A DNA stretch of 64,000 bases from Alphaproteobacteria bacterium (GCA_965214705.1 CBDCCI010000002.1:512001-576000); one strand, 5' to 3'; positions 13,688-44,621 are shown, counted from the first letter of the stretch. Translations and numbers: made by a program. Notes: generated from the letters alone by a model not told the origin.

Positions 13688-14010
13688 CAGTCCGGCGCTG
13701 GCCGCGGAGCGACGTTGTCGGTCATTTTCAGGAAGTCGAGAACCCGCCTCGGTTTCCTGGCCAGATTGCGCATGGTCTCGGCGACAGCGAGCCCGCGCCC
13801 CTTGATGACGCCGATGGCGAAGCGCCGCAGCAGGGTCATGTTCTCCGGACCGTAGCCCGAGCGGATACGGCATCGGTCCTCGTCGAAGCTCCAGTCGAGG
13901 ATGTGATGGGCCGCCTCGATGGTCCAGTGCCCGCGATTGAGGGTGAGCAGGCGTTCCGGCGATGCGGCCTGCGCACTCAGGCTGGTGACGCCGTAAGCCG
14001 TCTCGCAGCT
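13688..14010 (-). pseudogene. ISAs1 transposase C-terminal fragment
   Basis: ETAYGVTSL..LNRGHWTIEAAHHILDWSFDEDRCRIRSGYGPENMTLLRRFAIG; homologous to the C-terminus of the ISAs1 ORF ending at 24878. Confidence 0.85.
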
Positions 14011-14013
14011 CCT

Positions 14014-14345
14014 TTTATGAGGCTGTGGAAGTCAAGGAACGAAGCCTCTGTCTACCTCATGTGGAGCCCTCCCTGGGTTGGCAGTATCTTCGGCCGCTTT
14101 CGCCGGGTCGAAACGCTTCTTGCATCGGTCGCGCCTCAAGTACGCATACCCACCTTTTATCCGGGCGGTTGTCGGCAAGGGTGTGCCGAATCCGTCCCCC
14201 CAATCCCGCTTGCTGCGGGCGCAGCGTTCCGGAGGCGGGACCCATCTCTTGCCCGGCGTATTTCAGCCCGCGAGCAACCCGGCCACACGCCACCCGGCCC
14301 AGCGCCTGCCGCGTCCGGCCGGGCTGGAACAGTGCGGTCTCGGTG
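14014..14345 (-). ncRNA. Putative bridge/seekRNA region (identical copy at 21048-21379)
   Basis: Long 3' non-coding end typical of IS1111; motifs shared with 40113-40469; 7-mer matching its own circle junction. Confidence 0.6.
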
Positions 14346-15486
14346 TCAGGCGAGCTTGGCGCCCGTCGGCACGAGACCGGTCCCGGAGAACCGCCACAGC
14401 GCGATGAGTAGCTTGCGGGCGAGCGCCACGATCATCACTCGGCGAATGCGGCCCCGAGCTCCGGCGGTGCGTTCCTCGAACCACTTGCTGAGCGCGCTGT
14501 CGGGTTGATGGCGCAACCAGCGCCACGCCATTTGGATGAGGAGGGCACGGATCCAGGCCGGACCGTCGCGGCCGATCCCCTGATCGCGTTGCACGTCCCC
14601 GCTTGCCCACGGAGCCGGCGTCAACCCGACCCAACTCGCGAGCTCACGGCGGTTGTGGAAGTCGCGGTAGAAGATCTCGTGCTCAAGCAGCGTCACGTCG
14701 TTCGCGCCGATCCCCTTCAGTTGGGTCAACGTCGCGATCTTGGCCGCCGCCTTCTCCTGGCTTCCCTCCGGGGCGACCGGCGCCGGGATAGCCTCGCCCT
14801 GGCGGGCAACCGCATCTCGCTCCGCCTCGACTTCCGCGATCTGCCGCTGCACGAGCGACAGCCGCTCCACAAGCCGAAGGATCTCCTGGCGAGCCCGCGG
14901 CGGGAACGGCGATCCATATGCGGTCACCGTGTCCGCGAACGTCTCCTCGAACCCTTTGGCGCGGGGGTCCAGGTCGAAGATGCCGTGCAGCTTCAGCAGC
15001 CCCTTGATCGAGTTGGTCAGCGAGGTCCGCTCCTTCACCAGGCGCCGGCGCTCGCGAATCAGCCGCTTGCGATCCTCCTCCTCGACGCTCGGAACCCGCA
15101 CACGGCTCAGCACTGCGGCGTCACCCCGGTCATGGGCGAGAAGGGCGCGCACCATCTTCTTCGCATCGATCCGATCCGTCTTGCGCTGCTTCGCCTTCCG
15201 GTTCACCAACAGGCTCGCCGGATCGAGCACCACCGTCTCGATGGACATCTCCCGCTCCAGCCAGCGCTCCAGCCAGAAGCCCTCGTAGCCCGCCTCGTAG
15301 CAGCACAGGACGCGCACCTCTCGGTCGAGAGCCCGTTCAGCCTTGGCCCGCTGCTTCTCGATCAGATCCCTGAGGCCTTCCGTGTCCGCCGGCCCGAGCG
15401 AGTGCAGGCCGATCTTTTCGCTGGTCGGGCTCTTGACCCCAACCACCCAGCTCTTCCGGCTGACCTCAATCGCCACGTACAGCGTG
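14346..15486 (-). CDS. IS110 transposase body (native first ~16 codons displaced to 20854-20900)
   Basis: YVAIEVS, CYEAGYEG, RKTDRIDA, GLTPAPWASG, ALARKL. Confidence 0.9.
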
Positions 15487-16510
15487 TTGAACTGAGCCGC
15501 GTTCCGCGGCGGGGTGTCTTGCCCGCCGGGTAATCGGAGTGACCTCCCCACAGCAGGCAAGTTGATCGGGGCCGTCCGCCTCAGCGCGACGGCGCAGGGT
15601 CTCAACCCGTTTCTCTCTCGTTGATCGATGGTCGTCGACCGCCTGGCCCGCAAGCAAGAGCATGGGCGTGTCTTCGTGACAGATCAGACCAAGAGGGAGA
15701 CGCCCCATGACGCCGCTTCGTCAGCGCATGATCAACGACATGACCGTTCGCGGCTTCGCCGAGAACACCAGGAAGTCCTACCTCAACTCGGTCTCCAGGC
15801 TCGCGGTTCACTACGGCCGCAGCCCCGAGTTGATCTCGGCGGAGGAAGTCCAGGAGTACCTCATCTTCCTTCACGAAGAGCGGGGGCTGGCCTGGCAGAG
15901 CTGCAACAGCGCTCGCCAGGGGATCCGCTTCTTCTATCGCATCACGCTGGGCTTGCCCGAGCCGCACTTCTATCTGCCCTTCGCCAAGACGCCTTCCACC
16001 CTGCCCGTGCTGCTCAACCAAGAGGAACTGGTGCGGCTGTTCAGCGTCACCATCAACCGCAAGCACCGGGCCTTGCTGATGACGGCCTATGCAGCGGGGC
16101 TTCGGGCGAGCGAGCTCGGCCGGTTGCAGGTCGGCGACATCGACTCACAGCGCATGTTGCTGCGCATCGACCAGGGCAAGGGCAACAAGGACCGCTACGT
16201 CCCGCTTTCGCCCCGGCTGCTGGAGGAGCTGCGCGAGTACTGGCGGCGGGTACGGCCCGAGCACTGGCTGTTCCCCAGTCGGATTCTCGGCCGGCCGATG
16301 ACGCGCAGTGGGGCCTCACGCGTTTACAATGGAGCCAAGGACAAGGCCGGGATCGACAAGCCCGGCGGGATCCACACGCTGCGCCATTGCTACGCCACCG
16401 GGCTCCTCGAGGCGGGCGTCGAGTTGCACGGTAAGCGGTACGCAGACCCCATACCGGAATCTGGCTTGACTACGACGGGGATTTCTTGAGGAGCGCCGTG
16501 AGCGCGCGAG

Positions 16511-18253
16511 TCATTTTGCCTCGGGCTGGAAGTTCCACGGCAGAAGCTCCTGGATGCCCGACTGCGGGTGGCCCTTGGCGATCTTCTCGAGCGTGCTCCG
16601 CATCCAGGCGTAGGGCTCGACGCCGTTCATCTTGCAGGTCTCGATCAGCGAGGCGATGCGGGCCCAGGCTTGCGCACCCTCGTCGTTGCCGGCGAAGAGC
16701 GCGTTCTTGGCGGTGAGCTTCAGCGGCCGGATTCGGTTTTCCACCAGGTTCGAGTCGATCTCGACACGACCGTCGTGCAGGAACTCCAGCAGCCCGTCCC
16801 ACTGGTTGGCGATATAGGTCAGCTTCTCGCCGAGACGCGAGCGCGGTGAGACGCGCGAGCGCTGCTCGTCGAGCCAGACACCGAAGGTGTTCACGATCGG
16901 CGCCGACTCCTCCCAACGGATCGCGCGGCGCTCCGCCGGCGGCTTGCCCCGGATCTTCTTCTCGATCGCATAGAGCTTCGCGATCCGATTCAGACCGGCC
17001 AGCGCGATCGGCGATGCGCTCGAGTCGTATACCTCTTTCAGCTTCCGTCTTACATGCGCCCAACAGAGGGCCCGCGTCACAGGGCCTTCCGCCCGGTCCG
17101 GCCGCGCCAGGATGTTGTGGCCCGAGTAGCCGTCGAGCTGCACCGTCCCCGAAAAGCCCTCCATAAGCTCGGCGCCATACTTGCCGCCGCGGCCGGGCGC
17201 ATAGCGATAGACGACGCCCGGCGGGTCCGTGCCGCTCCAGTGGCGCTCGTCACGCACAAGGGTCCACATGTAGCCCGTCTTCGTCTTGCCCCGGCCCGGG
17301 TCGAGAACGCGGATCGTGGTCTCGTCCAGACCCAGGTGATCCGACTTCTTCAGCTCATCCTCCAGGCAAGCGACCACGGGGCGCAGGTGAAACGACGCCT
17401 GGCCCACCCACGTCGCCAGCGTCGCACGGTGAACCTCGATCCCCGAGCGCTCGTAGATCTGCGACTGGCGATAGAGCGGGCAATGATCGCCGTACTTCGC
17501 GATCAGCACCTGCGCCAGAAGAGCCTCGGTGGGAAGGCCGCCCTCGACCAGAGCGGCCGGCGCCGGCGACTGCACCACCCCGCCCCCCTTGCACTTGTTG
17601 CAGGCGTAGCGGGGGCGCACGGTCTCGATGACGGTGAACTTCGCCGGCTCATAGTCCAGCCGCTCGCTGCGGTCCTCGCCGATCTTCGTCATCTCGCCGC
17701 AGCCGCAGGGGCACATGATCGTGTCCGGCTCGATCACCTCCTCGCGCCGGTCGACCTGGGGCCCGAAGCGCACCCCGCTGCGCGACCCCCGGGAAGAGCG
17801 CCGCCGGCGCTTGCCGCCAGCCCCCTCGTCCTGCTCCTGGTCATCTGCCTCGGGCCGACCGCCGGCTTCAGCGATCGCCGCCCAAAACTCCTCGAACGTA
17901 AGCTGGCGCTCGTCCTCGCCGAGCTTCTCGGAGCGCGGACCGAACAGCGCCTTCCTGAGCTCCTTGTTGAGATGCTCAAGCCGGCTGATCTGCTCCGCGC
18001 TCTGCGCGTTCTCGGCCTCCAGCCGTGCCGCCCGCGCTTCCGCCGTCTGCCTCGCCGCCTCCGCCGCGCCGCGTGCCTGCTCCGCTTCGCATAGGGCTGC
18101 TTCCGTCGCCCGGCGCGCCGCGCGCTCGTCGTCAAGCTCCGCATGCAGGGCCGCCAGCGCCGCCGAAACCACCGCAGGCGACGGCGAACCGGCGCTGCTG
18201 AGGGGTGAGGGCGTGACCTTCGGCATGGGCCACCCCTTAATCCGATTCGCCAA
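16511..18253 (-). CDS. tnpC: IS66 transposase TnpC
   Basis: LFGPRSEK coiled coil, Zn finger, LDET, LDGY, CWAH, NLVENRIRP. Confidence 0.95.
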   Translation of the reverse strand: MANRIKGWPMPKVTPSPLSSAGSPSPAVVSAALAALHAELDDERAARRATEAALCEAEQARGAAEAARQTAEARAARLEAENAQSAEQISRLEHLNKELRKALFGPRSEKLGEDERQLTFEEFWAAIAEAGGRPEADDQEQDEGAGGKRRRRSSRGSRSGVRFGPQVDRREEVIEPDTIMCPCGCGEMTKIGEDRSERLDYEPAKFTVIETVRPRYACNKCKGGGVVQSPAPAALVEGGLPTEALLAQVLIAKYGDHCPLYRQSQIYERSGIEVHRATLATWVGQASFHLRPVVACLEDELKKSDHLGLDETTIRVLDPGRGKTKTGYMWTLVRDERHWSGTDPPGVVYRYAPGRGGKYGAELMEGFSGTVQLDGYSGHNILARPDRAEGPVTRALCWAHVRRKLKEVYDSSASPIALAGLNRIAKLYAIEKKIRGKPPAERRAIRWEESAPIVNTFGVWLDEQRSRVSPRSRLGEKLTYIANQWDGLLEFLHDGRVEIDSNLVENRIRPLKLTAKNALFAGNDEGAQAWARIASLIETCKMNGVEPYAWMRSTLEKIAKGHPQSGIQELLPWNFQPEAK

Positions 18254-18319
18254 TGCATGACCAGGGAAAAGTGCAGGCGGGACCGCGACCGAAATCTGCG
18301 GCCCCGCCTGCGTGCCGCC

Positions 18320-18670
18320 TCACTCCGCCGCCAGCGGGCGGCGAACCGGGCGGGCCTTCACCCGGCGCCAGTCCAGACCCTCGAAGAGGGCCTCGAACTG
18401 GCCCTTCGTAAGGCGCATCACACCATCCTCGATCCGAGGCCAGGCGAAGCGGCCCTGCTCCAGACGCTTGTAGGTCATCACCAGACCGCTGCCGTCCCAC
18501 GCAAGGAGCTTGAGCCTGTCGCCGCGGCGCGAGCGGAAGATCACGATCACCCCGGAATAGATATCGAGGTCCAGCTCCCCCGCCGCCGTCGCCGCAAGCG
18601 CGTCGTGGCCGCGACGAAAATCAACCGGCCGCGTCGCCAACACGATGCGAAGCGAGGGGGCCGCGATCAT
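18320..18670 (-). CDS. tnpB: IS66 accessory TnpB
   Basis: PVDFRRGHD..RRGDRLKLLAWDGSG..KRLEQGRFAWP. Confidence 0.92.
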   Translation of the reverse strand: MIAAPSLRIVLATRPVDFRRGHDALAATAAGELDLDIYSGVIVIFRSRRGDRLKLLAWDGSGLVMTYKRLEQGRFAWPRIEDGVMRLTKGQFEALFEGLDWRRVKARPVRRPLAAE

Positions 18671-19122
18671 GACGACGCCCGGCCCAGGCCCGAGGCCACC
18701 GCAACAATCCGATCGACCGCGCTCTCCACCGGAAGGCGAACGACCACGCCTAGCGCCTCGATCGCCACCGTCCGCTCGGACGTCACGCTATCAACCACCA
18801 CGGGAACAAATGGCGGTGCAGAGCCACCAATCCGAGCGCCCGGAAGAGTTCCCTCCCGCGCGCGCCGCCGCCACTTGGTCAGGGTCGTATCGCTGACGCC
18901 ATGGCGGCGCGCGACCGCCGCAACCGAAGAGCCCGGCTCAAAGCTCTCCGAGACAATCCGCGCCTTCTCATCGTCCGGCCAGCGTCGCATGGGGGCCGGC
19001 TCAGACGGAGCCGGGGCGGCTCCCTCAGAAGCTGGGATCTCAACCGAAGCAACAGCGACACCGTCGCCAGATGCCAAAATCGAATCTGTCATCGCGATCT
19101 CTCCTGTGTGGCTCGTGGTCAA
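18667..19122 (-). CDS. tnpA: IS66 TnpA (HTH)
   Basis: RRWPDDEKARIVSESFEPGSSVAAVARRHG. Confidence 0.88.
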   Translation of the reverse strand: MTTSHTGEIAMTDSILASGDGVAVASVEIPASEGAAPAPSEPAPMRRWPDDEKARIVSESFEPGSSVAAVARRHGVSDTTLTKWRRRAREGTLPGARIGGSAPPFVPVVVDSVTSERTVAIEALGVVVRLPVESAVDRIVAVASGLGRASS

Positions 19123-19324
19123 GGCGGAGAGTCAGCCCCGAAATCAGATCCGCTGGAAGTATGGGGGCCCGATACCGCTTACGTTGCACGTTATCCAACG
19201 CCGCCTCGGGCACACCTCCATCCGCTCCACCATGCGCTACCTGCACCTGGCCCACGACAAGACGTCGGCCACACCGTCTCCTCTGGACCTGCTGGAGTTC
19301 CCGCGTCCCGCCCAGGCATGACCG

Positions 19325-20542
19325 GTGGCCTGCCACCCTCCAGCGCCGGCCAAACGGCCGGCGCTGGAGGTTGCGGACATCCTGCGCGAGCGCGGAGATG
19401 CCTACGGTGAGACCCATCGGCTCTCGGCCCAGCAGCAGAGGGTCATCGACGCGCTGGTGAACTGCCGCACCGCCGCGCTCGGAGGATTCAAGGCGGAATG
19501 CGATCACTGCGGGGCGGTGAGGATCCAGTACGCCTCGTGCCGCAACCGTCACTGCCCCAAGTGCCAGACCCTCTCGCAGACCAGATGGGTCGAGCGTCAG
19601 TGCGCCGACCTGCTCGACATCGACTACTGGCATGTCGTCTTCACATTGCCCCACGAACTCAACCCCGTGGCCCAGGGCAACCCCGCGCTCATCTACAGCC
19701 TGCTCTTCAAGGCCGCCTCCCGGACCTTGCTGGAGTTCGGCCGCAATCCCCGCTGGCTCGGCGGCGAACTGGGGATCACCATGGTGCTGCACACCTGGGG
19801 GCAGAACCTGGGACAGCACATCCATGTCCACTGCATCGTCACCGACGGCGGCCTGAGCCCGGACGGACAACGCTGGCTCAGCCCTGCGCGCAAGGGCTTC
19901 CTGTTCCCCACGGCCGCGCTCTCGAAGGTCTTCCGCGGCAAGTATCTCGACTTCCTCGACACCGCGCACCGCGACGGCGAACTGCGGCTGCAGGTCGCCG
20001 GCGGCGGCGACGACAGCCGCGAGTTCGAGTGTCTGAAGACCGCGCTGCGCTCGCACGACTGGGTGGTCTACACCAAGGCCCCGTTCGCCGGCGCCGAGCA
20101 CGTTCTGGCCTACCTCGGGCGCTACACCCACAAGAGCGCCATCGCCAACCACCGCCTCGTCGACTACGACGGCGAGCATGTGCGCTTCCGCTGGCGCGAC
20201 TACGCCGACGGCAACAAGGTCAAGGTGATGCGTCTCGACGCCGACGAGTTCATCCGCCGCTTCCTCCTGCATGTCCTCCCGCGCGGCTTCACCCGCCTGC
20301 GCCACTACGGCTTGCTCGCCAACCGCTGCCGGGCTCGCAAGCTCGCCCTGTGCCGGGACCTGCTCGGCCAGCCCGCCCCCGAACCGCGAGAGCCGGAAAC
20401 GACGCAGGAGATGATGCTGCGACTGACGGGGATCGACATCACCGTGTGCCGGCAGTGCGGCGAGGGAACGCTACGGCAGATCCTCATTCTCGAGCCGCAG
20501 CCCCAAGCAGCGATGCAGGCGACGAAGACCCGACCGCCATGA
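19325..20542 (+). CDS. IS91-family Y2 HUH transposase with Zn-binding domain, intact
   Basis: CRTAALGG..SCRNRHCPKC, HVVFTLP, HIHVH, YLGRY, FIRRFLLHVLP. Confidence 0.93.
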   Translation: MACHPPAPAKRPALEVADILRERGDAYGETHRLSAQQQRVIDALVNCRTAALGGFKAECDHCGAVRIQYASCRNRHCPKCQTLSQTRWVERQCADLLDIDYWHVVFTLPHELNPVAQGNPALIYSLLFKAASRTLLEFGRNPRWLGGELGITMVLHTWGQNLGQHIHVHCIVTDGGLSPDGQRWLSPARKGFLFPTAALSKVFRGKYLDFLDTAHRDGELRLQVAGGGDDSREFECLKTALRSHDWVVYTKAPFAGAEHVLAYLGRYTHKSAIANHRLVDYDGEHVRFRWRDYADGNKVKVMRLDADEFIRRFLLHVLPRGFTRLRHYGLLANRCRARKLALCRDLLGQPAPEPREPETTQEMMLRLTGIDITVCRQCGEGTLRQILILEPQPQAAMQATKTRPP

Positions 20543-21379
20543 CGATGCGCCAGAGCCGAACAAGGTCCGATGACAGCCCGCCGGTCACCGCGCTGCGGTC
20601 GCTGCCGAGCACGCTTCGTGCCGTGCAGCGGCGGAACATCGTCGTGAGCTGCTGCACAGACGCGTCGCATTCTGCCGAGTTGAGATTCAGAGTGCCGGCG
20701 CCTCCAGGGAGACCAAAAAGCTGTACCGCTTCGGTCTGATTGACTTCCAAGCAGCGGTTACTTTCCCCATAGCCCGGCACCACGGCCGTGCCGCGCGGCT
20801 CAGCTCAATGCCTTTATCGGTCATGCTGCGCACGACCGATAAAGGCCAATTCATCATGCTCCGCCTCGGCCGGCGCAGCGGTCTCGTTCAATGAGGACAT
20901 ATCGTGTCTCCTTATGAGGATTGGTCAGAACGGCACCGTAGCGCCGGTCTTCGAGTCGCCTCATAGGATCTCTTGGGGTGCGTGACGCCGCGCCGGACAT
21001 GAATGGCCGGGCAAACGCATCGGCTTTGTTCGTGAGGTCCCGCACCTTTTATGAGGCTGTGGAAGTCAAGGAACGAAGCCTCTGTCTACCTCATGTGGAG
21101 CCCTCCCTGGGTTGGCAGTATCTTCGGCCGCTTTCGCCGGGTCGAAACGCTTCTTGCATCGGTCGCGCCTCAAGTACGCATACCCACCTTTTATCCGGGC
21201 GGTTGTCGGCAAGGGTGTGCCGAATCCGTCCCCCCAATCCCGCTTGCTGCGGGCGCAGCGTTCCGGAGGCGGGACCCATCTCTTGCCCGGCGTATTTCAG
21301 CCCGCGAGCAACCCGGCCACACGCCACCCGGCCCAGCGCCTGCCGCGTCCGGCCGGGCTGGAACAGTGCGGTCTCGGTG

Positions 21380-22520
21380 TCAGGCGAGCTTGGCGCCCGT
21401 CGGCACGAGACCGGTCCCGGAGAACCGCCACAGCGCGATGAGTAGCTTGCGGGCGAGCGCCACGATCATCACTCGGCGAATGCGGCCCCGAGCTCCGGCG
21501 GTGCGTTCCTCGAACCACTTGCTGAGCGCGCTGTCGGGTTGATGGCGCAACCAGCGCCACGCCATTTGGATGAGGAGGGCACGGATCCAGGCCGGACCGT
21601 CGCGGCCGATCCCCTGATCGCGTTGCACGTCCCCGCTTGCCCACGGAGCCGGCGTCAACCCGACCCAACTCGCGAGCTCACGGCGGTTGTGGAAGTCGCG
21701 GTAGAAGATCTCGTGCTCAAGCAGCGTCGCGTCGTTCGCGCCGATCCCCTTCAGTTGGGTCAACGTCGCGATCTTGGCCGCCGCCTTCTCCTGGCTTCCC
21801 TCCGGGGCGACCGGCGCCGGGATAGCCTCGCCCTGGCGGGCAACCGCATCTCGCTCCGCCTCGACTTCCGCGATCTGCCGCTGCACGAGCGACAGCCGCT
21901 CCACAAGCCGAAGGATCTCCTGGCGAGCCCGCGGCGGGAACGGCGATCCATATGCGGTCACCGTGTCCGCGAACGTCTCCTCGAACCCTTTGGCGCGGGG
22001 GTCCAGGTCGAAGATGCCGTGCAGCTTCAGCAGCCCCTTGATCGAGTTGGTCAGCGAGGTCCGCTCCTTCACCAGGCGCCGGCGCTCGCGAATCAGCCGC
22101 TTGCGATCCTCCTCCTCGACGCTCGGAACCCGCACACGGCTCAGCACTGCGGCGTCACCCCGGTCATGGGCGAGAAGGGCGCGCACCATCTTCTTCGCAT
22201 CGATCCGATCCGTCTTGCGCTGCTTCGCCTTCCGGTTCACCAACAGGCTCGCCGGATCGAGCACCACCGTCTCGATGGACATCTCCCGCTCCAGCCAGCG
22301 CTCCAGCCAGAAGCCCTCGTAGCCCGCCTCGTAGCAGCACAGGACGCGCACCTCTCGGTCGAGAGCCCGTTCAGCCTTGGCCCGCTGCTTCTCGATCAGA
22401 TCCCTGAGGCCTTCCGTGTCCGCCGGCCCGAGCGAGTGCAGGCCGATCTTTTCGCTGGTCGGGCTCTTGACCCCAACCACCCAGCTCTTCCGGCTGACCT
22501 CAATCGCCACGTACAGCGTG
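21380..22520 (-). CDS. IS110 transposase body, copy 2
   Basis: Same protein as 14346-15486. Confidence 0.9.
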
Positions 22521-22932
22521 TTGAACTGAGCCGCGTTCCGCGGCGGGGTGTCTTGCCCGCCGGGTAATCGGAGTGACCTCCCCACAGCAGGCAAGTTGAT
22601 CGGGGCCGTCCGCCTCAGCGCGACGGCGCAGGGTCTCAACCCGTTTCTCTCTCGTTGATCGATGGTCGTCGACCGCCTGGCCCGCAAGCAAGAGCATGGG
22701 CGTGTCTTCGTGACAGATCAGACCAAGAGGGAGACGCCCCATGACGCCGCTTCGTCAGCGCATGATCAACGACATGACCGTTCGCGGCTTCGCCGAGAAC
22801 ACCAGGAAGTCCTACCTCAACTCGGTCTCCAGGCTCGCGGTTCACTACGGCCGCAGCCCCGAGTTGATCTCGGCGGAGGAAGTCCAGGAGTACCTCATCT
22901 TCCTTCACGAAGAGCGGGGGCTGGCCTGGCAG

Positions 22933-25134
22933 CAGGGCGAATTTGTCCAAGCCTGATTTTTGAGTTCTGCGCTACGAGTTGACCTTGGGTCTGGTCAGCG
23001 CGCGCCAACCCTGCTATGGATTGAGGCGACTGGATTCGCGGTGTTCTGCTGCGGATCGGCTTCGAGCAGGGGGACGGTTTCTACGGTGGATCTTTCCGAG
23101 GTCGATGTCGCTGCTGTCCGGCCGGAGGACGAGGCCCGGTTCCGCGCGCTGATGGAGGGGCATCACTACCTGGGTGCGTCTGCGAAGGTGGGGGCGACGG
23201 CGTGGTACGTCGCCCATCGGCGCGGCGAGTGGCTGGCGCTGGCCGTGTTTTCGGCTGCGGCGCGCAAGTGCCGGGCGCGGGACGAGTGGATCGGCTGGGA
23301 CTTCCGCACGCAGCACGGGCGGCTGCATCTGATCGCGAACAACGCGCGCTTCCTGATCCTGCCGGGACGGGGTGTTCCGAACCTCGGCTCGCGGGTGCTG
23401 GGGCTTTGCGCGCGGCGCTTGGCGCGCGACTGGCCGGCCCGCTTCGGCCACCCCGTGCTGATGCTGGAAACATTCGTGGACGCGGCGAGGTTCCGGGGCA
23501 CGGTCTACCGGGCGGCTGGATGGCTGGCGGTCGGCCAGACCCGCGGCTTCCGGCGCCACCGCTCGGGCTATGTCGCCGGCTCGACGCCGAAGCTTGTGCT
23601 GCTGCGCCCCCTGGTTCCCGACGCCTGCCGCCGGCTGTCCGCTGCCGGGCTGGATCGGGAGTTGTGGAAGAAAGGAGTTCCGAGAACCATGATCAGCGCC
23701 GCTCAGCAAGAGTCGCTCTACGCCTACTTCAAGGACATCGACGACCCCCGCACGCGCAAGGGACGGCGGCATTCGCTGCCCAGCGTGCTCGCGCTTGCGA
23801 GTGGCGCGACGCTCTGCGGCATGCGAGGCTGGAAGGCCATGTCCGAGTGGGTCGACGATCTCGGCGAGAAGGCGCTGGCCCGCTTCGGCGTGCGGCTGCG
23901 CGACGGGGTGCGCCGGCCGCCTTCGATGTCGACCATCCGCAATGTGGTGATCCGGGTGGACCCGGACCAGTTGGACGAGGCGTTGCGCAAGTGGCAGGAG
24001 GCCCACGGCTCAGGCGACGCGGCGCTTGCCATCGACGGCAAGACCCTGAGGGGGGCCATCGACGAGGACGGGACCCAGGCTCATGTCATGAGCGCGGTCG
24101 GGCACGAGACCAAGGCCACGCTCGCCCAAAAAAACTTCTCCTGAAAGTCGGGGCCGACGAGGAGACAAAGCGCACCAACGAGATCGGCACCGTGACGGCG
24201 CTGGTGGACCTGATCCCGAACATCGCGGGCAAGACGGTCACGACGGACGCGCTGCTAACCCAGCGCAAGTTCGCCCGCTACCTGCTCGACCGGGGCGCGC
24301 ACTTCATGTTCATCGTGAAAGGGAACCAGAAGACCATGCGGGACGATGTGACGCTGCTCTTCGAAGAGGCGCCGGAGCGTGAGCCTGACTTCGAGGAGGA
24401 GGCCGCGCTGTCGCACGGACGCATCGAGCAGCGGGCAATCTGGACGAGCACGGAGTTGAACGGCTTTCTCGACTTCCCGGGCGTCGGCCAGGTCTTCATG
24501 ATCGAGCGCTCCCGCCAGGACAAGAAGACCGGCGAGACCGGCACCGAGACCGCCTACGGGATCTCCAGCCACACGCCCGGCACGGCCAACGCGCAGAGCC
24601 TGCTCGCCCTCAACCGCGGCCACTGGTGCATCGAGAACAGCTCGCACCACTGCCTCGACTGGACCTGGGACGAGGACCGCAGCCGCATACGCACAGGCTT
24701 CGGCCCCGAGAACATGACCCGCCTGCGGCGCTTCGCCATCGGCCTGATCAAGGGCCGGGGGCTCGAGGTCGCCTCGACCGTGCGCAGGCTCGCCCGCAAC
24801 GTCCGCGCCGTCCTCGACTTCCTGAAAATGACCGGGAACACCCAGCCGAGGACCGCAAAGCGCGCCGCGCCGGCCTGAACCCCGGCGCCCGGCAAGCCGG
24901 GCGCAAAGATCGTACCTGCCTCGCTCCCGACCACGCCGGTGGCGCGATCCATCATGTCGGGGCACCGCCAAATCGCGACGGCACCGCCCGCACCGCCCAC
25001 ACGGTAATGCCAGAACCCTCTGACCGAACCGGATGCTCGGCCAGACCCCGCCGCAAACCCCGCAACAAAGCCGATCCGCACAACCCGTGGCCAGAACTCA
25101 ACTGCCTACCAGCCGCTTGGACAAATTTGCCCTG
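22933..25134 (+). mobile_element. ISAs1-family element
   Basis: IR cagggcgaatttgtccaagc / gcttggacaaatttgccctg; 10-bp TSD ggcctggcag. Confidence 0.93.
22960..24878 (+). CDS. DUF4338/DruA-like domain fused to ISAs1 transposase, -1 frameshift at A7C (24128-24135)
   Basis: HHYLG, ANNARFLILP, LETFVD..GTVYRAAGW; then DPR..RH, AIDGKTLRG | TTDALLTQ, VKGNQ, RGHWCIEN; true start uncertain. Confidence 0.8.
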
Positions 25135-25658
25135 GGCCTGGCAGAGCTGCAACAGCGCTCGCCAGGGGATCCGCTTCTTCTATCGCATCACGCTGGGCTT
25201 GCCCGAGCCGCACTTCTATCTGCCCTTCGCCAAGACGCCTTCCACCCTGCCCGTGCTGCTCAACCAAGAGGAACTGGTGCGGCTGTTCAGCGTCACCATC
25301 AACCGCAAGCACCGGGCCTTGCTGATGACGGCCTATGCAGCGGGGCTTCGGGCGAGCGAGCTCGGCCGGTTGCAGGTCGGCGACATCGACTCACAGCGCA
25401 TGTTGCTGCGCATCGACCAGGGCAAGGGCAACAAGGACCGCTACGTCCCGCTTTCGCCCCGGCTGCTGGAGGAGCTGCGCGAGTACTGGCGGCGGGTACG
25501 GCCCGAGCACTGGCTGTTCCCCAGTCGGATTCTCGGCCGGCCGATGACGCGCAGTGGGGCCTCACGCGTTTACAATGGAGCCAAGGACAAGGCCGGGATC
25601 GACAAGCCCGGCGGGATCCACACGCTGCGCCATTGCTACGCCACCGGGCTCCTCGAGG

Positions 25659-30699: not shown

Positions 30700-30858
30700 G
30701 GGATGATCTTGGACATGCCCCTTGCGCTCAGAAGGCGATCAAAATACTCGATCACCTTCTCGAGTCCAGTTTCCAAAGGCGTGGCCGGCGTCCAATCGAG
30801 GTCATTCTTGGCTTTCGTGATGTCGGGCTGCCGCCGTCGCGGATCGTCTTGCGGCAAT
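30696..30858 (-). pseudogene. UDP-glucuronate decarboxylase/NAD-epimerase C-terminal remnant
   Basis: LPQDDPRRRQPDITKAKNDLDWTP..LETGLEKVIEYF. Confidence 0.8.
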
Positions 30859-31160
30859 CTTTAGGGTTGAGCAGGTTCGCGAGAGCGATCCTGCTCAACC
30901 CGTTTGAACGAAGCCGCGGGCCCCGAGACTGGACGTTGGATATGTGGAAAGTGCGCCGGTGGCGCGCTTAGGAAGGGATGACTGGCGGGATGCCTGTTGT
31001 CGCGGCTGCTGTTTCAGTCCGGGCTGGGCCGGCCTTCGGCACGTGAATCGGGGAGATCGATCGGGTCGAGCGGCGCGCCTGCGTGCATGATCGGGATCGA
31101 GCACGAGTTGCCCGGCTTGCCGGCGAGACGGCGCGGACGCACGAAGCTGAAGCGAAGGGA

Positions 31161-34100
31161 TTACCCACGGCTGCGACCCGTGTTCGGGCACCCGTCGGGT
31201 GGCGCCCGGCTCGCGTGGGCGGGACGCTGGCGAGGGATCTGGCGGACGAGGCGCAGCGGCGCTCCGCAATCGGGACAGGCCACGGGAGCGGTTCCGGGGT
31301 CCGCTATTTCGTCGCGCTCGCGCTCGCCTTTGGGCGCATCGTCATCGACACACTCGTCGTCGGGACAGCCGATAGGGCCGAGGGCTTCGCGCGCGCGCTC
31401 CAGCGTCCTGGCGCGGCATCCGTTGGCGAGGATGCCGAAGTGACGGATGCGGTGCATCCCGTCGGGCAGGACATGGAGCAGGAAGCGGCGGATGAACTCG
31501 TCGACGCTGACGGTCATGGTGCCGTAGCGGGGCTTGCTCTGCCCTGGCCCCTTGGGCTTTCGGTGCCGGAAGGAGACGGTCTCGCCGTCGAAGGCCGTGA
31601 TGCGGCTGTCGGAGATTGCGATCCGGTGGGTGTAGCGGGCGAGGTATCGGAACACCTGCCCAGGCCCGCGGAAGGGCCGCTTGGCGTAGACCACCCAGTC
31701 CCTGCTGCGTGCGGCGGCGAGTGTGGCGTGGAACTCGCCGGGGTTGGCGAGATGGGCGACGGTGCCGTGGAACTCCAGCTCGCCGCGGCCATGGGCGAGA
31801 GCCAACTCTTCGAGGAAGCGGCGGCGAAAGAAGCTGGCCAGGACCTTGACGGGGGCGAAGAAGGTGCCGCTCCCGGTCTTCCACTCGCCGCTCTCGACAT
31901 CGAAGCCCGCGTTGGGCACCACCACGTGCAGATGGGGATGGAAGCGGAGCTTCTGGTCCCAGGTATGGAGAACCGCGGTTCCGCCGATGCGCATGCCCCC
32001 ATGCCGGGGATCGGCGGCGATGGTGCGCAGGGTCTCGGCGACCGTCTTGAACAGGATGCCGAAGACGACCCTGCGGTTGCCGAAGCCGATGGCGGCGATC
32101 TGGGCTGGCAGGGTGAAGACCGCGTGGAAGTAGGGCACCGGCAGGAGCTCGGCGGCGCGTGCCTCGCTCCATCGGTTGGCTGCCAACCCCTGGCAGCTCG
32201 GGCAGTGGCGGTTGCGACAGGAATTGTAAAGCGGATGCTCGCGCCCGCAGCCCTCACAGGCGTAGATGTGCCCGCCGAGCACGGCGGTGCGGCGTAAGCG
32301 GTACGCAGACCCCATACCGGAATCTGGCTTGACTACGACGGGGATTTCTTGAGGAGCGCCGTGAGCGCGCGAGTCATTTTGCCTCGGGCTGGAAGTTCCA
32401 CGGCAGAAGCTCCTGGATGCCCGACTGCGGGTGGCCCTTGGCGATCTTCTCGAGCGTGCTCCGCATCCAGGCGTAGGGCTCGACGCCGTTCATCTTGCAG
32501 GTCTCGATCAGCGAGGCGATGCGGGCCCAGGCTTGCGCACCCTCGTCGTTGCCGGCGAAGAGCGCGTTCTTGGCGGTGAGCTTCAGCGGCCGGATTCGGT
32601 TTTCCACCAGGTTCGAGTCGATCTCGACACGACCGTCGTGCAGGAACTCCAGCAGCCCGTCCCACTGGTTGGCGATATAGGTCAGCTTCTCGCCGAGACG
32701 CGAGCGCGGTGAGACGCGCGAGCGCTGCTCGTCGAGCCAGACACCGAAGGTGTTCACGATCGGCGCCGACTCCTCCCAACGGATCGCGCGGCGCTCCGCC
32801 GGCGGCTTGCCCCGGATCTTCTTCTCGATCGCATAGAGCTTCGCGATCCGATTCAGACCGGCCAGCGCGATCGGCGATGCGCTCGAGTCGTATACCTCTT
32901 TCAGCTTCCGTCTTACATGCGCCCAACAGAGGGCCCGCGTCACAGGGCCTTCCGCCCGGTCCGGCCGCGCCAGGATGTTGTGGCCCGAGTAGCCGTCGAG
33001 CTGCACCGTCCCCGAAAAGCCCTCCATAAGCTCGGCGCCATACTTGCCGCCGCGGCCGGGCGCATAGCGATAGACGACGCCCGGCGGGTCCGTGCCGCTC
33101 CAGTGGCGCTCGTCACGCACAAGGGTCCACATGTAGCCCGTCTTCGTCTTGCCCCGGCCCGGGTCGAGAACGCGGATCGTGGTCTCGTCCAGACCCAGGT
33201 GATCCGACTTCTTCAGCTCATCCTCCAGGCAAGCGACCACGGGGCGCAGGTGAAACGACGCCTGGCCCACCCACGTCGCCAGCGTCGCACGGTGAACCTC
33301 GATCCCCGAGCGCTCGTAGATCTGCGACTGGCGATAGAGCGGGCAATGATCGCCGTACTTCGCGATCAGCACCTGCGCCAGAAGAGCCTCGGTGGGAAGG
33401 CCGCCCTCGACCAGAGCGGCCGGCGCCGGCGACTGCACCACCCCGCCCCCCTTGCACTTGTTGCAGGCGTAGCGGGGGCGCACGGTCTCGATGACGGTGA
33501 ACTTCGCCGGCTCATAGTCCAGCCGCTCGCTGCGGTCCTCGCCGATCTTCGTCATCTCGCCGCAGCCGCAGGGGCACATGATCGTGTCCGGCTCGATCAC
33601 CTCCTCGCGCCGGTCGACCTGGGGCCCGAAGCGCACCCCGCTGCGCGACCCCCGGGAAGAGCGCCGCCGGCGCTTGCCGCCAGCCCCCTCGTCCTGCTCC
33701 TGGTCATCTGCCTCGGGCCGACCGCCGGCTTCAGCGATCGCCGCCCAAAACTCCTCGAACGTAAGCTGGCGCTCGTCCTCGCCGAGCTTCTCGGAGCGCG
33801 GACCGAACAGCGCCTTCCTGAGCTCCTTGTTGAGATGCTCAAGCCGGCTGATCTGCTCCGCGCTCTGCGCGTTCTCGGCCTCCAGCCGTGCCGCCCGCGC
33901 TTCCGCCGTCTGCCTCGCCGCCTCCGCCGCGCCGCGTGCCTGCTCCGCTTCGCATAGGGCTGCTTCCGTCGCCCGGCGCGCCGCGCGCTCGTCGTCAAGC
34001 TCCGCATGCAGGGCCGCCAGCGCCGCCGAAACCACCGCAGGCGACGGCGAACCGGCGCTGCTGAGGGGTGAGGGCGTGACCTTCGGCATGGGCCACCCCT

Positions 34101-35174
34101 TAATCCGATTCGCCAATGCATGACCAGGGAAAAGTGCAGGCGGGACCGCGACCGAAATCTGCGGCCCCGCCTGCGTGCCGCCTCACTCCGCCGCCAGCGG
34201 GCGGCGAACCGGGCGGGCCTTCACCCGGCGCCAGTCCAGACCCTCGAAGAGGGCCTCGAACTGGCCCTTCGTAAGGCGCATCACACCATCCTCGATCCGA
34301 GGCCAGGCGAAGCGGCCCTGCTCCAGACGCTTGTAGGTCATCACCAGACCGCTGCCGTCCCACGCAAGGAGCTTGAGCCTGTCGCCGCGGCGCGAGCGGA
34401 AGATCACGATCACCCCGGAATAGATATCGAGGTCCAGCTCCCCCGCCGCCGTCGCCGCAAGCGCGTCGTGGCCGCGACGAAAATCAACCGGCCGCGTCGC
34501 CAACACGATGCGAAGCGAGGGGGCCGCGATCATGACGACGCCCGGCCCAGGCCCGAGGCCACCGCAACAATCCGATCGACCGCGCTCTCCACCGGAAGGC
34601 GAACGACCACGCCTAGCGCCTCGATCGCCACCGTCCGCTCGGACGTCACGCTATCAACCACCACGGGAACAAATGGCGGTGCAGAGCCACCAATCCGAGC
34701 GCCCGGAAGAGTTCCCTCCCGCGCGCGCCGCCGCCACTTGGTCAGGGTCGTATCGCTGACGCCATGGCGGCGCGCGACCGCCGCAACCGAAGAGCCCGGC
34801 TCAAAGCTCTCCGAGACAATCCGCGCCTTCTCATCGTCCGGCCAGCGTCGCATGGGGGCCGGCTCAGACGGAGCCGGGGCGGCTCCCTCAGAAGCTGGGA
34901 TCTCAACCGAAGCAACAGCGACACCGTCGCCAGATGCCAAAATCGAATCTGTCATCGCGATCTCTCCTGTGTGGCTCGTGGTCAAGGCGGAGAGTCAGCC
35001 CCGAAATCAGATCCGCTGGAAGTATGGGGGCCCGATACCGCTTACGGTGCGGCACGCCTCGATCGCAGCCATGACCTTGAGCCGGGCGGCGTCGATGCGC
35101 CCCTTGCAGCGCTCACGGAAAGCGAGGCCGGCGCGGCGGAAGATGTCCGCCACGCCGACGTTCTGGCGATCCAC
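31161..35174 (-). pseudogene. IS91-type Y2 transposase split by IS66
   Basis: CRT|AVLGG..NSCRNRHC, HPHLH, YLARY. Confidence 0.9.
32294..35045 (-). mobile_element. IS66 copy 2 (tnpC 32374-34116, tnpB 34183-34533, tnpA 34530-34985)
   Basis: Identical proteins to copy 1; TSD ggtgcggc. Confidence 0.95.
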
Positions 35175-35180
35175 GCCGGA

Positions 35181-36056
35181 TCAGCGGCGAAGCAGCGGAA
35201 AGTCCGAGATGGGGTGATCGAGGCCCTCGAACATCCTGGCGGTGGAGCGCGCGTACTCGCGGGTCGTGTCCGCACGACGATGGCCGAGCATGTCGCGGAT
35301 CACCTCCATGTTGCCGCCCCGCTCATGAAGATGGGTGGCGGCCGAATGACGCAGGCAGTGGAAGGTGTGGCGGCTGTCGACGCCGGCCCGCTCGCGCGCC
35401 TTCTTGAAGGCCACGTGCAGGTCCCCTGTCCGGATGGGCACGTCGGGCGAGGCGCCATAGAAGAGCCAGCTCTCCGGCTCCGGCCAGATGTTCTTGTAGT
35501 AGCCGCGCAGGTAATGGATGACGGCTTCCGGCATCGGTGCCATCCTCTCGGTGCCGCCCTTGCCGGAAGGGATGTGTAGCAGCTTCTGGTCCGACTTGAT
35601 GTCGCCGATCTTGATGGCCACGGTCTCGGAGATGCGAAGCCCGACACCGTAGGCGGTGACGATGGCGGCGCGGTACCGGAGGTCGGGCGTTGCGAGGATG
35701 ATGCGCTCGACCTCCTCCTCCATGTGTCGCGGCAGCTTGCGGGGCTTCTTGCGGGCGCGCAGCCCGGCCACGCGCTCAGGGCATCCCAGGGTCTCGGCAT
35801 AGAAGAACTTCAGGGCGGCGACGGTGACGTTGGTCGTCGCCGGCTTCAGGCCGCGATCGATGCCGGACAGGACCCAGGCGCGCACCTGGTCGGCGTCGAG
35901 GTCGGCCGGCGAGGCCTTGTAGTGCTTGGCAAGCTGCGCGATCTCGCCGATGTAGATGGTCTGCGTGCTCTCGGCGAAGTTGGCGATGCGCATCTGGTCG
36001 ATCATGCGCTGGCGAAGAGGGCTGCCCGTTGTCCCCTCGGCTGTGGTCTCGGTCAT
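35181..36056 (-). CDS. XerD/IntI-like tyrosine recombinase
   Basis: SPLRQRMI, YGVGLRISE, GKGG, HCLRHS, MLGH, TREYA. Confidence 0.9.
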   Translation of the reverse strand: MTETTAEGTTGSPLRQRMIDQMRIANFAESTQTIYIGEIAQLAKHYKASPADLDADQVRAWVLSGIDRGLKPATTNVTVAALKFFYAETLGCPERVAGLRARKKPRKLPRHMEEEVERIILATPDLRYRAAIVTAYGVGLRISETVAIKIGDIKSDQKLLHIPSGKGGTERMAPMPEAVIHYLRGYYKNIWPEPESWLFYGASPDVPIRTGDLHVAFKKARERAGVDSRHTFHCLRHSAATHLHERGGNMEVIRDMLGHRRADTTREYARSTARMFEGLDHPISDFPLLRR

Positions 36057-36288
36057 CGTCGATCTCCCGTGATCGCGACGGCGAGCCGCCGGACCGTTCC
36101 GACGACGGACCGTCTCGGGGATCGATGCTAACCACTGGTGATCGGGAACATGCCGGCCACTCGCCCGACCGGCGCTGCGCCAATGGACGCAATCTGAAGC
36201 GCGCGCGACACCTGCCAGCAGCGCACCCCGCACATCGAGGAAATGAACGAACGCTAGGCCGCCAACTCCGCGTAGCGGCTTCGTTCAA

Positions 36289-36502
36289 CTCCACATGGAT
36301 CCCGCGCCCGGCGCTCGCCTCCGTTCGAGAAAACCTCCGCCAGTCCCTCGATCGCCTGGCGCCTCCAGGCGCCGACTTGGTTCGGATGCACCTGGTGACG
36401 CGAGGCGATCTCTTGGAGCGTCCGATCCCCCCCAAGCGCCTCAAGCGCGATCTTCGCCTTCTGCTCCCCCGAAAACCTGCGTCGCTTGCCGCTGATCTGC
36501 AT
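36289..36502 (-). pseudogene. IS3-family OrfA fragment
   Basis: KRRRFSGEQKAKIALEAL..IASRHQVHPNQVGAW; cut by variant A end. Confidence 0.8.
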
Positions 36503-44525: not shown

Positions 44526-44621
44526 CCTGAGTGGCACGTCGGAGGTTGTCCCGGTAGCCAATAGGGGGGTTCCTGTTGGCCCACCGGGGCAAGCGGGCCG
44601 CAGGGGAGGCCCGCGTTGGGG

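Follow-up and report, generated by a model that had tools for sequence, protein, structure and literature searches.

Why should a transposable element of the IS91 family, which already encodes a Y2 HUH transposase, carry a tyrosine recombinase gene as well, and how might the two enzymes share the work of transposition? This question is raised by an element at 15487-20853 of a 64,000-nucleotide stretch of DNA, hereafter the window, from an Alphaproteobacteria bacterium (GCA_965214705.1, CBDCCI010000002.1:512001-576000; G000:C3:512001-576000 in our own coordinates). An earlier reading made from the sequence alone had proposed a hybrid mechanism in which the HUH enzyme replicates or releases single strands and the recombinase integrates them through a folded junction. 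Comparison of the element with its relatives shows that its two ends, together with a hairpin beside one of them, have been selected to base-pair as single-stranded DNA of the bottom strand. That the HUH enzyme would make bottom-strand circles whose folded junction is then integrated by the recombinase, as in integrons and CTX phage, is a scheme to which we give about equal weight for and against.

The limits of the element are set by the IS110-family element in which it is wholly nested. An empty copy of this IS110 sequence (G000:C3:1763744-1763943) is 100% identical to the left flank as far as 15487 and to the right flank from 20854 onwards, the two matches overlapping by a single shared T, such that the element extends over 15487-20853 or 15488-20854 and its ends are precise to one base. 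There is no target duplication, and the IS110 reading frame across the removed element reads AEHD-TLYV. The boundaries, the lack of a duplication and the restored frame had all been proposed in the sequence-only reading, and they are borne out by the empty site and, for the ends, by 11 paralogous copies as well. The 3' part of the host IS110 element occupies 14008-15486 on the minus strand (Pfam DEDD_Tnp_IS110 and Transposase_20, NCBIfam transpos_IS110; its outer limit is approximate and taken from the extent of a repeat), and its 5' part 20854-21041, also on the minus strand.

Pfam and NCBIfam resolve the content of 15487-20853 into a split recombinase gene, an IS66-family element, a Y2 transposase gene and about 310 nt of non-coding right end. 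The proposed layout was thus correct, except that the IS66 element splitting the recombinase gene had been overlooked. The 5' part of this gene (15707-16430, plus strand, about codons 1-241) matches Pfam Phage_integrase (4.7e-27) and Phage_int_SAM_4 (2.6e-17) and, by alignment with an intact paralog, contains the catalytic Arg, Lys and His-x-x-Arg; the 3' part (19183-19321, plus strand) supplies the final His and the nucleophile Tyr (..LGHTSIRSTMRY..). Between them lies the IS66 insertion (16431-19182, minus strand; Pfam, inverted repeats), with genes at 18667-19122, 18320-18670 and 16511-18253 and flanked by an 8-bp duplication, GTTGCACG, at 16423-16430 and 19183-19190. Subtracting the IS66 element leaves about 2.6 kb, and intact paralogs indeed measure 2610 bp. 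Since its recombinase gene is broken, the window copy is unable to make its own recombinase and would be mobile only with help from paralogs, in which the recombinase and Y2 genes lie on the same strand 3 nt apart. The Y2 gene itself (19325-20542, plus strand) is intact: its product matches Pfam Y2_Tnp (9.4e-61) and Zn_Tnp_IS91 (1.5e-29) and NCBIfam transpos_IS91 (4.1e-133; 443.8 bits against a cut-off of 125), and has a zinc-binding N-terminus, the motif H-I-H-V-H and two tyrosines, Tyr263 and Tyr267. H165, H167, H169, Y263 and Y267 are invariant in an alignment with the transposases of IS1294 and IS91 and an IS801-like protein.

Alignment indicates that the recombinase retains the full set of Arg, Lys, His-x-x-Arg, His and Tyr. 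Among solved structures Vibrio cholerae IntI4 (2a3v, 7e-31) matches it best, ahead of XerA, XerC-like and XerD proteins, and its top NCBIfam hits are integron integrase and XerA, both under the cut-off (124 against 265 bits for the integron model). At the position of the IntI-specific domain IntI4 has 71 residues and the present protein 29, hence this insert of about 42 residues is absent. A preprint on the classification of such enzymes (10.1101/542381) places recombinases 'found in IS91 and IS3 transposons' in an 'Integron-like subgroup' without the IntI insertion, so that the kinship to IntI is already in print. The gene pair, too, is already known. Recombinase-bearing relatives of IS91 are listed in ISfinder and TnPedia.

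What sets the element apart is the design of its ends. The left end (15487-15510, plus strand) consists of TT, GAAC and a GC palindrome, GCCGCG-TTC-CGCGGC (15496-15510), and forms one arm of a terminal pairing. The right end carries an internal motif resembling oriIS, ACTTTCCCCATAGCC (20760-20774), 79 nt inside the end, after which come a subterminal inverted copy of the left end (20785-20808; 24 nt at 79%), a hairpin with a 13-bp stem (GCCTTTATCGGTC / GACCGATAAAGGC) and an 11-nt loop (20810-20846), and an unpaired 7-nt tail, caattca (20847-20853), the next T being shared with the target. All these features lie on the plus strand. The 15-nt core of the inverted copy, CGCGGCTCAGCTCAA at 20794-20808, pairs at 14 of 15 positions; core, hairpin and tail were all found where the sequence-only reading had located them. 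The single core mismatch is A.C on the top strand and therefore G.T on the bottom strand. When the two ends are joined by script, a single imperfect stem-loop forms (-40.5 kcal/mol, z -7.9 for the top strand; -40.9 kcal/mol, z -7.7 for the bottom strand), compared with -28.3 kcal/mol (z -3.2) for the right end folded with its real flank instead of the left end. In the 11 paralogs (family A; about 91% nucleotide identity, 93% for the Y2 protein) the left end starts (N)TGAACTGAGCCGCG in every case and the right end stops at GGCCAATTCA in all 10 that were mapped, one of them reading TTTA. The hairpin is preserved among them by a compensatory change from T:A to G:C. This change, together with the recurrence of the same design in unrelated sequence of other families, argues that the end design did not arise by chance.

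Across the 7.9 Mb of the genome the Y2 protein has 142 matches and the recombinase 148. The greater part of them come from a second family (family B; 43% protein identity for Y2 and 36% for the recombinase), in which the two genes are always adjacent and for which 94 left and 88 right ends were mapped. Family B starts with TTGAACGAAGCCGC.. and ends with ..CGCGGCTTCGTTCAA, followed by a hairpin of unrelated sequence with a 19-bp stem and then AACC. The B-like families C and D have different hairpins and tails, and across B, C and D (80% identical) the distance from the foot of the hairpin to the end ranges from 4 to about 10 nt. An apparent start of families C and D 2-5 nt before TTGAAC was rejected, since a third D copy exposed it as chance identity of the flanks. 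Paired ends of family B are at least 2.6 kb apart, and no short non-autonomous derivatives were found. The element is also present in runs labelled marine, sponge and coral metagenomes.

The closest relatives on public plasmids are those of Legionella antarctica (54% identity), Aromatoleum EbN1 plasmid 2 (49%) and Vibrio parahaemolyticus (42%), all with the recombinase gene directly upstream. They share one layout: the left end has (G)TTGAAC or TTGGAC with a small GC hairpin, while on the right the motif CCCCATAG comes first, the left end recurs in inverted form, and a long hairpin leads to a short tail. The Aromatoleum protein, whose two genes are likewise adjacent, is named 'IS91-like element ISAzo26 family transposase' by NCBI, and the window element, judged by its genes and ends, is an ISAzo26-type member of the IS91 family that forms a new subfamily of this catalogued group. 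In a survey limited to one genome per species, 586 of 592 candidate stretches encode a relative and 80 loci were kept. The recombinase gene lies directly upstream of the Y2 gene in 77 of the 80; one of the others is at a contig end and two are 5'-truncated. The latter two, L078 and L090, were considered as natural Y2-only forms and rejected, as both have lost their 5' parts and retain the right-end module. A strict automatic test of the end design called for a pairing of 12 or more bases that joins a site 60-320 nt ahead of the recombinase gene to one 100-400 nt after the Y2 gene, and for a hairpin of at least 8 pairs within 8 nt of the paired right site; it was passed by 39 of the 64 loci with enough flank, from Acidobacteriota, Planctomycetota, Proteobacteria, Spirochaetota and others.

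Why, then, should the two ends be complementary? The sequence-only reading had suggested collecting homologous gene pairs and looking for covariation of inverted repeat and hairpin, and in this comparison both turn out to be conserved through compensatory changes. Pairing between the left end and the inverted copy is kept across phyla, with several pair types per column: the second base of GAAC, for example, pairs as A:T in 19, G:C in 9, T:A in 4 and C:G in 1 (37 distinct loci), and conserved pairing reaches up to 5 nt outside GAAC. Covariation alone could mean that one protein binds both ends as duplex, but an asymmetry between the strands could not be explained in this way. Such an asymmetry can be read from the wobble pairs, because a G.T pair in one strand corresponds to a C.A mismatch in its complement. 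Of 39 loci, 34 have a hairpin that folds better on the bottom strand, 4 favour the top strand and 1 shows no difference (mean difference 2.75 kcal/mol, Wilcoxon p 5e-7), with 73 G.T pairs in bottom-strand folds against 17 in top-strand folds, and the cells between the ends comprise 529 Watson-Crick pairs, 32 wobbles of the bottom strand and 5 of the top strand, and 51 mismatches of other kinds (binomial p 7e-6), both p-values being generous because the loci are related, with a direction that is consistent. Bottom-strand wobbles outnumber top-strand wobbles at 19 loci and the reverse holds at 2; the one mismatch of the window copy is of the same kind, G.T on the bottom strand. This excess shows that ends and hairpin are under selection to pair in single-stranded DNA. 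A bottom-strand RNA would produce the same wobble bias, but is an unlikely source of it for two sites 2.6 kb apart.

How do these ends relate to those of classical IS91-family elements? We mapped IS1294 in an E. coli plasmid by the extent of its copies (L009:1051-2763); the ends of IS91 and an IS801-like element were read as well. Classical left ends consist of GAAC or CGAG and then a GC hairpin with a TGGC loop. The left end of IS1294, GAAC-CACG-GCAGCC-TGGC-GGCTGC, can be set against TT-GAAC-TGA-GCCGCG-TTC-CGCGGC in the window, and the left hairpin of ISAzo26, CCGC-TGGC-GCGG, has the same TGGC loop. The left end is thus clearly homologous to the classical terIS of IS1294 and IS91: it has the tetranucleotide and the subterminal palindrome, and its terminus lies 2 nt beyond the tetranucleotide. 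Classical right ends stop 2-4 nt past a motif that is conserved among them (CAATTTCCTATACGT|, TAAATTCCTATCGAT|, GAAATTCCTATACAT|). A motif of similar sequence is retained by the recombinase-bearing clade, ACTTTCCCCATAGCC in the window and (T)TCAATCCCCATAG in many relatives, which resembles the terminal (A)ATTCCTAT(A)C of IS1294, IS91 and IS801, but this motif is not at the very terminus where an oriIS stands: it is 79 nt internal in the window copy, 60-90 nt inside the end in this genome and further inside in some relatives. An automatic search with a regular expression found it at 26 of 39 loci and was too strict. Placement of the ends elsewhere, for example at this motif, had been named as an outcome that would speak against the sequence-only reading; none of the 88 right ends of family B falls there. 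A module past the motif is found in every recombinase-bearing relative with resolved ends and in 0 of 3 classical elements, and it is this module, made of the inverted copy, the extra hairpin and the tail beyond the internal origin-like motif, that is new in the clade.

The main text of a study of IS91 (PMC13181058) describes two different ends that are not inverted repeats. It places at terIS one subterminal palindrome beside the cleavage site, GTTC or CTCG (IS91), and at oriIS one or two palindromes with the target tetranucleotide adjoining. For IS1294 and IS801 it gives GTTC both at the target beside the right end and as the last bases of the left end, and it reports insertion of IS91 by a bottom-strand single-stranded circle only; the terms 'tyrosine recombinase' and 'integrase' do not occur in this main text. 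The statement of the sequence-only reading that classic IS91 has no terminal inverted repeats therefore holds for the two dissimilar ends, yet passes over their subterminal palindromes. In the recombinase-bearing clade even the absence of inverted repeats fails, as a repeat between the terminus of one end and a subterminal site of the other spans 14-24 nt here and up to 44 nt in relatives.

The insertion targets provide a second line of evidence. At 88 unique sites of family B, information is concentrated at +2 and +1 (1.80 and 1.22 bit, both T), with lesser contributions at -1 (0.51 bit, C or T; G in just 2 of the 88), at -7 and -8 (0.47 and 0.45 bit, both A) and at +6 (0.34 bit, C). TT occupies +1/+2 in 65 of the 88 sites, and AA occupies -8/-7 in 24 of them against about 2.4 expected. 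The consensus, (C)AA-N5-Y|TTG..C, amounts to a dyad AA-N6-TT with insertion at the right edge of a 6-bp spacer. The right arm of the target is similar to TTGAACG at the terminus of the element, agreeing with it at 3.7 of 7 positions where random words agree at 1.7. Within single sites the complementarity of the arms is 2.24 pairs of 7 against 2.37 for shuffled arms; since this is not above the shuffled value, the target appears to be a consensus read on both sides and not a hairpin. In family A the right flanks read TTATGTT (5), TTATGTG (2), TTACGTT (2), CTATGTT and ATATCGC, the window copy having TCATGCT, and the word TTATGTT occurs only 85 times in the genome, both strands counted. On the left, several flanks have ACATAA or ACATAG and then 6 nt, giving AACATAA-N6-|TTATGTT, which looks like a dif site when set beside the E. 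coli dif sequence. No unoccupied ACATAA-N6-TTATGT site is left in the genome. The end of a nine-copy element that codes for other recombinases has received family A on both sides of one core, the two insertions facing in mirrored directions. Where a copy has a base other than T, the crossover would be A|TT in some cases and AT|T in others; some copies are duplicates of larger repeats, which leaves about eight independent events. In acidobacterial relatives words of 4-6 bases (CGTTT, GATTT, CGTTA, GACTT, GCGAC) occur at the left terminus and again directly past the tail, and covary at the two places from family to family.

Two side observations concern these targets. The sole CATAA-N6-TTATG site of the genome, CCATAA-TATATC-TTATGCG at C3:1885744, lies at the cumulative GC-skew maximum of C3 and is probably the dif site of this replicon. 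The nine-copy repeat (G000:C1:1593969-1594568 and eight other places), whose end is a favoured target of family A, opens with reiterated TTATGTTGCG words and lies beside other tyrosine recombinase genes (e.g. C1:1592248-1592733); it may be an element of the recombinase-in-trio type.

Joined ends of the kind that were folded by script also occur in nature. A contig of a Kuenenia metagenome-assembled genome (L079) contains two identical 2633-bp copies head to tail, joined as ..hairpin-CTATACA|TTGAACTAAACCGC, and the sole B-B tandem of the genome is formed by the copies at C2:643961 and C2:646631. Exact tail|TTGAAC joins of tandems are thus seen once in the genome and once in Kuenenia, and both junctions fold as predicted (z -5.1 to -15.0). 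Family B abuts the left end of family A exactly in three further cases. At the B-B junction (G000:C2:646570-646660; L092:121-195) an extra GGTT pairs with the tail to give a perfect palindrome with a 37-bp stem, for which we have no explanation beyond repair of the bulge. The Vibrio parahaemolyticus plasmid NZ_OQ622008.1 (L008:3887-4498) has a right end ..AAAACG followed by TTAGAT, the rifampin ADP-ribosyltransferase gene arr and a stem-loop that begins ATCTAAC, the complement of GTTAGAT. With its attC-like stem-loop this arr unit is cassette-like, and its join to the element falls at x|TT as elsewhere; the annotation of positions 1-22000 of the record includes no integron integrase. ISShvi3, which according to ISfinder carries a recombinase, has been reported beside an attC site.

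Taken together, these features are compatible with the following scheme, which is the one we favour. The Y2 enzyme would nick the origin motif and produce bottom-strand circles by rolling-circle replication from a tandem or an excised circular copy, such templates allowing a run from origin to origin to span the whole junction, as in CTX phage. The junction of the circle would fold into an attC-like pseudo core site in which one arm is formed by the paired ends (GTTCAA/TTGAAC) and the other by the foot of the hairpin, with the unpaired tail between them; the hairpin foot, CGATAA in family A and CCCAA in family B, matches the left arm of the respective targets. At x|TT of a core-like target the element's own recombinase would then exchange a single strand, leaving it to replication to complete the insertion. 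In topology the junction resembles attC, with an arm like the inverse core, a hairpin, unpaired bases and x|TTGAAC, where the recombinase would cut. The hybrid idea of the sequence-only reading is supported in part, by the ends, the pairing in single strands, the kinship to IntI and the core-like targets; the integration step by the recombinase is one that we only infer.

Several findings weigh against this scheme. The recombinase lacks the IntI-specific domain that reads extrahelical bases. The left-arm signal of family B targets is just AA at about 0.45 bit per position, and in family A the target arms (TTATGTT) are unlike the element's own terminal arm (TTGAACT). The orientation of family B with respect to replication is 30 against 14 on C1 and without bias on C3, in a genome with low GC skew and rearrangements. 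In four assembled contigs aligned on an intact paralog no right-to-left end joint was found, one of them being a collapsed contig of 2611 bp with exactly the ends mapped here, although assemblies are uninformative on the absence of circles. As to the generality of the end design, 25 of the 64 loci failed the automatic test, the AT-rich clostridial ones not being resolved; several of those that failed plainly carry the design (L015, L038, L045, L059, L089). The retention of motifs like terIS and oriIS implies continued activity of Y2 close to either end, and replication from the origin motif to the left end would leave the module behind. Finally, a folded bottom-strand junction and a target resembling the left end would be expected of a scheme without the recombinase as well.

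It is this last scheme, a transposition by the HUH enzyme alone in the manner of IS91, that survives best among the alternatives, and we consider it possible but somewhat unlikely. Y2 would cut the bottom strand at the outer right boundary, only a few bases away from the hairpin, and after ..GTTCAA at the left end, the bottom-strand circle would be held by the inverted repeat and inserted after a target resembling the last bases of that end, and the recombinase would be an accessory, for instance in the resolution of tandems or multimers or in the control of copy number. The intact catalytic residues of Y2, the left end homologous to terIS, with its TGGC loop in ISAzo26, and the lack of a target duplication are all in keeping with such a scheme, as is a target specificity that resides mostly beside the right end. 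According to PMC13181058 the bottom-strand circle is the only functional one in IS91 and origin ends bear subterminal palindromes; with the GTTC of IS1294 and IS801 the same paper offers a parallel for targets that look like the left terminus. The bottom-strand wobble bias fits equally well. It is less evident, though, why the origin-like motif should be internal with no copy ending there, why the spacing between hairpin and end should vary from 4 to about 10 nt in families B, C and D if the HUH enzyme measures from the hairpin, and why families A and B should share a GTTCAA left end yet have different targets. Furthermore, the AA at -8/-7 and the ACATAA-N6 stand on a side that a HUH cut does not read, and single targets are not palindromic. 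Nor does the scheme account for a module that all recombinase-bearing relatives with resolved ends have and the three classical elements lack, or give a role to a recombinase that has been kept intact in about 100 copies.

Alternatively, the recombinase might excise and integrate a double-stranded circle via a short core (TT, or 4-6 bp elsewhere), with Y2 merely replicating the excised circle from the internal origin, as relaxases do with excised integrative elements, and the hairpin serving as a cruciform or accessory site. The acidobacterial words of 4-6 bases at both junctions are reminiscent of an att core, the target arms are separated by a 6-bp spacer and an internal origin would suit the replication of a circle, but in families A and B just 1-2 bases are common to junction and target, too few for two staggered strand exchanges, the arms of the junction would be 45-130 bp apart as duplex, and the excess of bottom-strand wobbles would go unexplained; we regard this site-specific recombination of duplexes as improbable. 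We regard as very improbable an integration by host XerC/D or a resident integron integrase at dif- or attC-like targets: family A targets resemble dif, a dif candidate exists at the C3 GC-skew maximum and the Vibrio plasmid element abuts a cassette-like unit, but the element's own recombinase is upstream in 77 of 80 loci with complete catalytic residues, family B targets are degenerate and unlike dif, and none of the 11 family A insertions is at the C3 dif candidate.

The surroundings of the element attest to repeated nested insertion. Two IS110-family copies lie head to tail at 14008-22932, a repeat in which 14008-15898 equals 21042-22932, and the same element is inserted at the same base in each, which looks like a duplicated unit of IS110 with its inserted element. 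The insertion in the second IS110 copy is represented by a second, partial left-end copy of the element (22521-22932, resuming at 25135-25658, plus strand), and this IS110 copy was hit afterwards by an ISAs1-like element (22933-25134, with a 10-bp duplication). The interrupting sequence encodes at 22960-24144 (NCBIfam transpos_ISAs1) a 394-residue open reading frame with matches to Pfam DruA (Druantia) and to the DDE_Tnp_1-associated or ISAs1 N-terminal domain. The window also carries three near-identical IS66-family copies (16431-19182, 32294-35050 and 41774-44526), and an IS66 copy other than the one described above lies inside a family D recombinase-Y2 element (30856-36292, minus strand). 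Elsewhere in the genome an IS110-family element of 1649 bp interrupts Y2 at one and the same position, about codon 65, in many copies of family B (G000:C1:39200-41200 and about 18 others), which points to site-specific homing of this element into the Y2 gene. Family A itself being inserted into an IS110 element, the nesting also occurs in reverse. These 1.65-kb inserts in Y2 genes were considered as evidence for mobilisation in trans and discarded, the insert being a site-specific IS110-family element.

None of the articles covered by our literature search, which extended neither to ISfinder and TnPedia nor to supplements, describes the module at the ends, the strand bias of the pairing, the targets or the way in which this group moves. 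What the analysis offers is a testable architecture, in which a module lacking in three classical elements and ends that pair on the bottom strand meet targets shaped like the cores of Xer or integron recombination. Should the folded junction be a substrate of the recombinase, the element would be the first insertion sequence in which a HUH generator of single strands is coupled to a tyrosine recombinase. It would then parallel the integration of CTX phage by means of enzymes that it encodes itself, and attC recombination could plausibly have descended from it. Members of the group are widespread; the group reaches up to about 140 gene copies per genome and can adjoin resistance cassettes.

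The known systems with which the element can be compared each share some of its features. The classical elements IS91, IS801 and IS1294 have a Y2 HUH enzyme with two tyrosines, a terIS-like left end and an origin motif downstream of the gene, make no target duplication and use the bottom strand; in contrast to the present element they end at the origin motif, have no long terminal pairing and no recombinase, and insert at a bare tetranucleotide, whereas 60-130 nt of inverted copy, hairpin and tail extend beyond the internal motif in the ISAzo26 type. With the ISAzo26 group the window element has in common the gene pair, its order and spacing, and the end design, at 49% identity of Y2; unlike the ISAzo26 record, it belongs to a subfamily of its own and is broken by IS66. 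In the IS200/IS605 family a HUH enzyme likewise transposes single strands with subterminal hairpins and without duplication, but this enzyme is of the Y1 type, there is no recombinase, the ends are not complementary to each other, and a strong bias with respect to the replicating strand exists, in contrast to the present element. In CTX phage and other elements that exploit Xer, a HUH enzyme makes single-stranded circles from tandems, the folded strand mimics a core site, Xer exchanges one strand and replication finishes the process. The dif-like targets of family A, the 6-bp spacer and the existence of tandems fit this precedent, but the recombinase of CTX phage is encoded by the host, its site is the chromosomal dif and the element is a phage. 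Here the recombinase is encoded by the element itself and many dispersed targets are used, in place of a chromosomal dif acted upon by host XerCD.

A further likeness is to the recombination of attC with attI in integrons, in which a folded bottom strand is exchanged; folded attC has paired R''/R' arms (RYYYAAC/GTTRRRY), a second paired box, unpaired bases and a crossover before TT. A recombinase most closely related to IntI, the topology of attC, a junction at x|TT and a bottom strand predicted to fold recur here, and with the integron consensus words TTRRRY and RYYYAAC the terminal TTGAAC and the subterminal GTTCAA(C) agree. The element differs from integrons in that its recombinase lacks the IntI insert, the 'cassette' encodes its own recombinase together with a HUH enzyme, there is no attI platform or promoter, and the targets are dispersed. 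It is tempting to view ISAzo26-type elements as self-mobilising 'cassettes' and as the evolutionary source of integron recombination, with bottom-strand circles supplied by the HUH enzyme, a recombinase that joins their attC-like junction to core-like sites at x|TT, and a junction able to take up cassettes such as arr, but we think this rather doubtful. If it were true, integrons would have arisen by immobilising such a recombinase beside a fixed site.

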